From assembly GCF_050320075.1 (NCBI RefSeq), contig NZ_CP190018.1: a stretch of DNA of 64,000 nucleotides; one strand, given 5' to 3'. Both the position numbers and the translations under genes were made by a program. Shown piece after piece: positions 15,533 to 20,572 of this stretch (positions are counted from its first letter, which is position 1; each line of letters opens with the position of its first letter). The notes under the pieces were generated by a model that was not told the DNA's origin, made no database searches, and was given only the letters and a program-made list of their open reading frames with translations. Origin of the DNA: Escherichia coli. Its GTDB lineage: Bacteria > Pseudomonadota > Gammaproteobacteria > Enterobacterales > Enterobacteriaceae.

Positions 15533-18685
<3,153 letters not shown>

Positions 18686-18704
18686 TACAACGTGTAATCA
18701 CAAA

Positions 18705-18726
18705 GGCCGCGCAAGCGGCCTTTTTT
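18705..18726 (+). terminator. Rho-independent terminator after acrB
   Basis: GGCCGC-GCAA-GCGGCC hairpin followed by TTTTTT. Confidence 0.75.
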
Positions 18727-19230
18727 ATGCATAACCGACGAACATTAAGGAGTCATTGAACCACCAACTCAGGATCTCATACGAAAACCAGTATTAACCT
18801 CGCATAAAATTCATAAAAAATACTGATTGTTAGTTAATTTATATTAAGTAGCGCTAATAAATTTAATAATCCATAATCATTTAGAGGCTATTCTTAATTA
18901 TTTGCGGTAATTCTTTATTCATTCCTCGGTTATTACGTCATATTCAGAGCAATCCTGGTATTAGTGTCACCAATTTCATCTGGCGATAATCCTGAAATGT
19001 TATGAATAGTTCGAGCAGACTGCTTTTACCTACTGCGGGTTAGTGCTAGTATGAAAAAATGAGTCCTGTCCCGATTCCTTCCTAATTGTAATTTTTCGTA
19101 ATAATGCGATGAAAACCTGCAAAGAGTGGCTTATAGTTAAGCTAACAAACGAGAGGGCAAGTCCAGGTCAGTAAGTTTTTTCCATCCCGAAAGGTGTCCG
19201 TTAGTTCAACCACTAAGAAGGGGACGCGTT

Positions 19231-19605
19231 ATGGATGAATACTCACCCAAAAGACATGATATCGCACAGCTTAAGTTTCTCTGTGAAACCCTGTATCATG
19301 ACTGTCTTGCAAACCTTGAAGAAAGCAATCATGGCTGGGTTAACGACCCAACCTCGGCGATCAACCTCCAGTTGAATGAACTGATTGAGCATATTGCGAC
19401 CTTCGCACTTAATTACAAAATTAAGTATAATGAAGACAATAAGCTCATTGAGCAGATCGACGAATATCTGGATGACACCTTTATGTTGTTCAGCAGTTAT
19501 GGTATTAATATGCAGGATCTTCAGAAATGGCGGAAGTCAGGTAATCGACTATTCCGTTGTTTTGTCAATGCGACGAAAGAGAATCCTGCGAGTTTATCTT
19601 GTTAG
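19231..19605 (+). CDS. tomB: Hha toxicity modulator TomB (YbaJ)
   Basis: 124-aa [27 protein letters not shown]... recognised as TomB; immediately upstream of hha. Confidence 0.9.
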
Positions 19606-19630
19606 AATTATTACAACCATGGGTAGAAGT

Positions 19631-19849
19631 ATGTCCGAAAAACCTTTAACAAAAACCGATTATTTAATGCGTTTACGTCGTTGCCAGACAATTGACACGC
19701 TGGAGCGTGTTATCGAGAAAAATAAATACGAATTATCAGATAATGAACTGGCGGTATTTTACTCAGCCGCAGATCACCGCCTCGCCGAATTGACCATGAA
19801 TAAACTGTACGACAAGATCCCTTCCTCAGTATGGAAATTTATTCGCTAA
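19631..19849 (+). CDS. hha: Haemolysin expression modulator Hha (H-NS co-regulator)
   Basis: 72-aa [75 protein letters not shown], read from the tail of the 154-aa track ORF. Confidence 0.93.
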
Positions 19850-19926
19850 TAAATAATTCGCTTTCGGAGCTATAACCGGCTGTTTATTAAGAATTTTATA
19901 CTTTTTCGCCATGAAGACGTACCCTA

Positions 19927-19942
19927 TGTGATCTTTATCACA
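19927..19942. promoter_or_regulatory. Candidate CRP-type site (TGTGA-N6-TCACA) upstream of maa
   Basis: Perfect palindrome TGTGATCTTTATCACA about 80 bp upstream of maa start. Confidence 0.4.
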
Positions 19943-20020
19943 CAGATGTAATGGGAACGTTCTCTTCACTGACTTTTCGTCTTACTGTGTTGCCGCATTT
20001 TCAGCAACCGGAGGTCAGTA

Positions 20021-20572
20021 ATGAGCACAGAAAAAGAAAAGATGATTGCTGGTGAGTTGTATCGCTCGGCAGATGAGACGTTATCTCGCGATCGCCTGCG
20101 CGCTCGTCAGCTTATTCACCGATACAATCATTCCCTGGCGGAAGAGCACACATTACGCCAGCAAATTCTCGCTGATTTATTCGGTCAGGTGACAGAGGCT
20201 TATATTGAGCCAACGTTTCGCTGTGATTATGGCTATAACATTTTTCTCGGCAATAATTTTTTCGCCAACTTCGATTGCGTGATGCTTGATGTCTGCCCTA
20301 TTCGCATCGGTGATAACTGTATGTTGGCACCAGGCGTTCATATCTACACGGCAACACATCCCATCGACCCTGTAGCACGTAATAGCGGTGCTGAACTGGG
20401 GAAACCCGTCACCATCGGTAATAACGTCTGGATTGGCGGACGCGCGGTCATTAACCCTGGTGTGACCATTGGTGATAACGTCGTGGTAGCCTCAGGTGCA
20501 GTTGTCACAAAAGATGTCCCGGACAACGTTGTCGTGGGCGGTAATCCAGCCAGAATAATTAAAAAATTGTAA
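20021..20572 (+). CDS. maa: Maltose O-acetyltransferase (hexapeptide-repeat acyltransferase)
   Basis: 183-aa ORF with left-handed beta-helix hexapeptide repeats ([31 protein letters not shown]). Confidence 0.93.

Follow-up and report, generated by a model that had tools for sequence, protein, structure and literature searches.

A conserved CRP site at the maa promoter of Escherichia coli and an adjacent palindrome resembling the treB operator

The window analysed here, a 64-kb stretch of Escherichia coli DNA, comprises the acrB-tomB-hha-maa-ylaC-pdeB region, in which the listing of open reading frames and the RefSeq annotation of the identical E. coli region place all six genes on the plus strand. 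The acrB gene (15536-18685, +) is followed by tomB (19231-19605, +) and by hha (19631-19849, +), the co-directional upstream neighbour of maa, which is considered here as context only and not as a target. The maa coding sequence (20021-20572, +) specifies maltose O-acetyltransferase (183 amino acids) and is preceded by a Shine-Dalgarno sequence, GGAGG (20010-20014, +), which forms part of a purine-rich block that is conserved in a cross-species alignment. The spacer between hha and maa measures 171 bp, differs from that of K-12 MG1655 at a single base located outside the motifs described below, and is found in 5424 of 5426 complete E. coli genomes. In strain ML35 (NZ_CP025747.1), the sole such genome among the matches listed, the spacer match is split between two places with 79% coverage and overlaps a 'hypothetical protein', suggesting that the DNA between hha and maa has undergone insertion or rearrangement. 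Just 3' of acrB (18695-18772), we note a weak, sub-threshold match to the Rfam family 'uxuA RNA' (22.9 bits compared with a gathering score of 66.8, E = 0.3), which is probably due to chance.

The segment immediately 3' of hha (19850-19926) presents no more than an AU-rich hairpin with a U-rich tract after it, and the length of a T-run at ~19902-19906 differs between E. coli strains. No intrinsic terminator after hha was predicted in a consensus promoter and terminator scan of positions 19600-20200, and read-through from tomB-hha into maa is therefore possible independently of CRP, such that part of maa transcription may arise in this way. An RNA element within the spacer was considered and rejected, since the predicted fold is no better than that of shuffled sequences (z = -0.69) and Rfam places no family there.

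Within the hha-maa spacer, 78 bp past the hha stop codon, lies the palindrome TGTGATCTTTATCACA (19927-19942). As proposed in the original prediction, both half-sites are perfect (TGTGA and TCACA) and are separated by the canonical 6-bp spacer, so that all 10 core positions match TGTGA-N6-TCACA. The centre of the palindrome at 19934.5 is located 86.5 bp 5' of the maa ATG (A at 20021), in good agreement with the earlier estimate of about 85 bp. The consensus core recognised by CRP is TGTGATCTAGATCACA, with which TGTGATCTTTATCACA shares 14 of 16 bases, while the outer flanks are poor (CTA and CAG, compared with AAA and TTT). A perfect TGTGA-N6-TCACA motif occurs only this once in the 64-kb window, where 0.12 such sites are expected by chance. 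Scaled by our own arithmetic to a genome of ~4.6 Mb, this corresponds to roughly 9 perfect sites by chance; taken alone, the match is only weakly unlikely. Indeed, the palindrome could be viewed as a chance match to which no protein binds, given that at least one such site appears in 10 of 100 dinucleotide-preserving shuffles of the window. What raises the site above chance is its position, its conservation and its published occupancy by CRP.

Binding of CRP to this sequence has been observed both in vitro and in vivo. In the genomic SELEX-chip analysis of Shimada 2011 (PLoS One, PMC3105977), which employed purified CRP and where the peaks are absent without cAMP, maa is included among 119 newly identified CRP targets, and the supplementary row "10.329 maa< <hha TGTGATAAAGATCACA" contains the reverse complement of TGTGATCTTTATCACA. 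The same peak also lists AGCGATACAACTCACC, the reverse complement of GGTGAGTTGTATCGCT, a weak second CRP-like box that maps to 20051-20066 within the maa coding sequence and is probably incidental (PMC3105977). We note that the coordinates of the strong and weak boxes in this table look swapped with respect to the mapping obtained here. In the CRP ChIP-seq analysis of enterotoxigenic strain ETEC H10407 by Haycocks 2015 (PLoS Pathog, PMC4287617), Table 1 contains the entry '540805 TGTGATCTTTATCACA ETEC_0511 maa', which belongs to a set of 111 high-confidence sites. CRP binding at maa is already known, in vitro since 2011 and in living cells since 2015. The original prediction did not regard the link between CRP and maa as established, and this has to be revised in light of the listing of maa as a CRP target since 2011 (PMC3105977), whereas the comparison with CRP ChIP data that it proposed finds the site occupied in ETEC H10407 (PMC4287617). 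A ChIP record of the maa site in K-12 was not found in the literature searched, and the text supplements of the Crp ChIP-exo study of Latif 2018 name hha transcription units, not maa.

By our own count, eight sites in the table of Haycocks 2015 (PMC4287617) have a perfect core, the maa site included. The others, at caiT, ycfQ/bhsA, ygcW/yqcE, galP, yibI, mtlA and fdoG, resemble the maa site in having no core mismatch and being positive by ChIP-seq, although several of them lie between divergent genes or are in tandem, whereas at maa a single site is flanked by co-directional genes. With SELEX and ChIP-seq both placing CRP on the exact sequence, and with the sequence being conserved between genera, a chance match lacking bound protein is vanishingly improbable, and the published binding data already refute it.

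CRP sites are symmetric, and the box could in principle regulate hha and tomB, or drive a leftward transcript antisense to hha, for which the AT-rich DNA to the left of the box offers -10-like hexamers on the minus strand, such as TAAAAT at 19898-19893. The original prediction had entertained regulation of hha and tomB, described there as divergent-facing and downstream, but both are located upstream of the site and on the plus strand like maa, and their promoter lies more than 700 bp away, before tomB. Since hha and tomB are co-directional and the site follows the hha stop codon, it cannot act on the tomB-hha promoter, and regulation of hha and tomB was rejected on the basis of gene orientation. 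A leftward antisense promoter was likewise rejected, because its minus-strand -10 candidates would put CRP at a non-activating position near -46 to -49, and because conservation within the spacer is lowest to the left of the box. Taken together, we consider regulation of hha and tomB, or of an antisense transcript, to be very improbable, and maa to be most likely the gene controlled by the CRP site at 19927-19942.

The CRP box is conserved both within and beyond the species. In an alignment of 10 E. coli alleles (100-95% identity) together with E. albertii and a divergent Escherichia lineage, the CRP half-sites are invariant and one base of the intervening spacer is polymorphic (T/C), while most of the polymorphism of the hha-maa spacer in the E. 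coli allele alignment is located upstream of the box. The variant base corresponds to window position 19936, where TGTGATCTTCATCACA replaces ...CTTTATCACA in several strains, including O18:H1 and APEC-like strains, leaving the half-sites intact. A scan with the Maa protein, using one genome per species, identified 13 enterobacterial loci among the matches listed, and the tomB-hha-maa-ylaC gene order is present in all 13. In 12 of these 13 species, a CRP box with 8-10 of the 10 core matches is found 87-109 bp before the maa ATG, whereas the sequence of its spacer varies. Retention of the half-sites together with drift of the spacer is, at the level of sequence, the classic footprint of a working transcription factor site.

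The same comparison yields two further observations about the proteins encoded at the locus. Across the Enterobacteriaceae, conservation is much higher for TomB (84-99% identity) and Hha (90-99%) than for the adjacent Maa (73-90%) and YlaC (74-92%). In addition, the next-best relatives of Maa after the 13 enterobacterial loci are all from Bacillota (61-72% identity), with no other Proteobacteria among the matches listed, and include the Bacillales genera Paenibacillus, Bacillus and Oceanobacillus, a distribution that hints at maa having moved horizontally between Bacillota and Enterobacteriaceae.

The position of the box relative to a conserved hexamer allows a model of the maa promoter to be proposed. 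Among 13 sequences compared, comprising the window and 12 species, 11 have a TAnnnT hexamer whose first base lies exactly 48 nt 3' of the CRP centre, and in one more this distance is 47 nt. Five kinds of hexamer are encountered at CRP +48 nt, namely TACTGT, TACCGT, TACGCT, TAAAGT and TAGCCT. With TAnnnT expected by chance at one fixed position only once in 64, the hexamer is best explained as the -10 element of maa. In the window, the predicted -10 hexamer is TACTGT (19983-19988, +), which would direct transcription from a predicted start at 19995-19996 (+), such that the CRP centre would lie at -60.5/-61.5, close to -61.5, which along with -71.5, -82.5 and -92.5 is a characteristic position of CRP at class I promoters. 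A simple consensus promoter scan called no plus-strand promoter within 19600-20200. The -35 region of the predicted promoter is poor, which explains why it was missed by the consensus scan and fits with dependence on an activator. A class II arrangement, with CRP at -41.5, was rejected, as the -10 element would then be required at 19964-19969, which reads CTTCAC, and the second palindrome described below would be placed between CRP and the start.

The distance between CRP and the hexamer also bears on the possibility that CRP binds at maa with little or no effect on transcription, as one of many occupied but non-regulatory sites on the chromosome. In line with this possibility, we found no direct demonstration in the literature searched of a change in maa expression in crp or cya mutants, and chance alone would yield roughly nine perfect sites per genome. 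However, the box is retained in 12 of 13 species although its spacer drifts, and its distance to TAnnnT is held constant between genera with base-pair precision, a combination that is hard to explain in the absence of a promoter function. We therefore regard a silent site as unlikely. Rather, we consider it likely that TGTGATCTTTATCACA serves the maa promoter as a genuine, high-affinity site for cAMP-CRP, from which CRP activates transcription in a class I manner at a predicted position of about -61. CRP control of maa, the principal suggestion of the original prediction, is thus the supported reading, based on binding in vitro, occupancy in vivo and a conserved class-I-like distance to the predicted -10 element.

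In the arrangement that we propose, CRP centred ~60.5-61.5 bp 5' of the predicted start most probably stimulates a weak, sigma-70-dependent maa promoter by contacting the RNA polymerase alpha subunit at its C-terminal domain, as at lac P1. The cell would thereby produce the maltose/glucose O-acetyltransferase during use of alternative sugars in the absence of glucose. The resemblance to lac P1, a class I promoter with CRP at -61.5 and a LacI operator, extends to several features, in that both promoters have a single CRP site ~61 bp upstream of the start (inferred in the case of maa) and that maa likewise has a weak -35 region and a putative palindromic operator of the LacI-family type nearby. 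Moreover, maa is a paralogue of lacA, with both genes encoding sugar O-acetyltransferases of the hexapeptide-repeat family. In contrast to lac P1, the putative operator of maa overlies the -35 region (centre about -36.5) rather than position +11, and the CRP box of maa is nearer to the consensus than that of lac.

The putative operator is the palindrome GGGAACGTTCTC (19953-19964), a LacI-family-type sequence and putative TreR box that matches GGGAACGTTCCC at 11 of 12 positions, in the window and also in MG1655. It is the only inverted repeat in the spacer besides the CRP box, and its centre is located 24 bp 3' of the CRP centre, which corresponds to about -36.5 relative to the predicted start. 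Upstream of maa, GGGAACGTTCCC is perfect (12 of 12) in six species, represented by an Enterobacter MAG, four Citrobacter genomes and Enterobacter sp. R1. A single base departs from GGGAACGTTCCC in E. coli and Pluralibacter, and two bases do so in Cedecea and Enterobacter sp. Ag1, whereas the copies in E. albertii and in two further Escherichia lineages are degenerate. At maa, the CRP centre and the palindrome are separated by exactly 24 bp in the window and in six species, seven sequences in all, and by exactly 18 bp in three species, while the distance from CRP to the -10 element stays at 47-48 nt in both groups.

A similar module is present at the treB (treBC) promoter of E. coli, where a CRP box (TGTGATCTT...) is followed by GGGAACGTTCCC and then by an AT-rich -10 element. 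Here, the same 12-mer, GGGAACGTTCCC, lies 18 bp 3' of the CRP half-site TGTGATCTTCGCTGCG, the same CRP-to-palindrome distance as at maa in three species. The two E. coli promoters are the reverse of each other in the quality of their elements. At treB, only the left CRP half-site (TGTGATCTTCGCTGCG) is good and the palindrome is perfect and invariant, whereas at maa the CRP box is perfect and the palindrome, 24 bp away, matches at 11 of 12 positions. Indeed, GGGAACGTTCCC is invariant at treB promoters of six genera, namely those of E. coli and of Citrobacter, Salmonella, Enterobacter, Kosakonia and Yokenella, the treR-treB spacers of the latter five having been obtained via TreR orthologues. 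We take the treB palindrome GGGAACGTTCCC to be the TreR operator, presumably that footprinted by Horlacher & Boos 1997; the operator sequence itself was not found in print in the literature searched.

Both the hha-maa and treR-treB spacers also appear in the part of the FlhDC genomic SELEX data considered here (PMC9962212), with peaks at 479234 and 4464250, respectively, the latter being the strongest among the rows listed. These two spacers hold the promoters that share the module of a CRP box and GGGAACGTTCCC, and the peaks might be due to a motif common to both or to a protein that co-purifies.

In the RegPrecise-derived table of Ravcheev 2014, the entry TreR(1) for Enterobacteriales comprises 8 sites in 8 regulons, which we read as one site per genome, and the table does not indicate maa as a member of the TreR regulon. 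Nothing relevant linking TreR or trehalose to maa was found in the literature searched, where co-control of maa by TreR appears to be unrecorded. On the basis of the shared palindrome and its placement, we put forward, as a tentative proposal that we judge slightly more apt to fail than to hold, that maa is under real TreR control, at least in the genera with a perfect box, and would thereby join treBC as a second, hitherto unnoticed member of the TreR regulon in Enterobacteriaceae. In this proposal, TreR would bind the conserved GGGAACGTTC(C/T)C over the maa -35 region, and GGGAACGTTCTC, which overlies the -35 region with the CRP box on one side and the predicted -10 element on the other, would be a candidate TreR operator that provides a specific off-switch. 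Like treBC, maa would then need both cAMP-CRP and trehalose-6-phosphate for full expression. The putative Escherichia operator is decayed (11 of 12 matches in E. coli and worse in E. albertii) next to a perfect CRP box, which suggests a shift in this genus from dual control to control by CRP only.

TreC releases free glucose. Glucose is reportedly a substrate of Maa (Brand & Boos 1991). Control of maa by TreR would be biochemically sensible because the free glucose released by TreC is then a substrate of Maa. A plausible purpose would be an overflow or detoxification valve, in which glucose freed in the cell by TreC, as well as maltose, is acetylated by Maa.

With respect to the published CRP regulon, the CRP site described here adds nothing beyond showing that a reading of sequence alone can find a true CRP target. 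What is added is a model of the maa promoter at the level of base pairs, with CRP at about -61 and a predicted -10 element TACTGT, of which we found no counterpart in the literature searched. The sole fresh lead is the second palindrome beside the CRP site, and with it the suggestion that maa, whose physiological role has long been unclear, is wired to trehalose catabolism via TreR. If true, TreR control of maa would enlarge a regulon that apparently has one site per genome (Ravcheev 2014), and would hint at the purpose of Maa.
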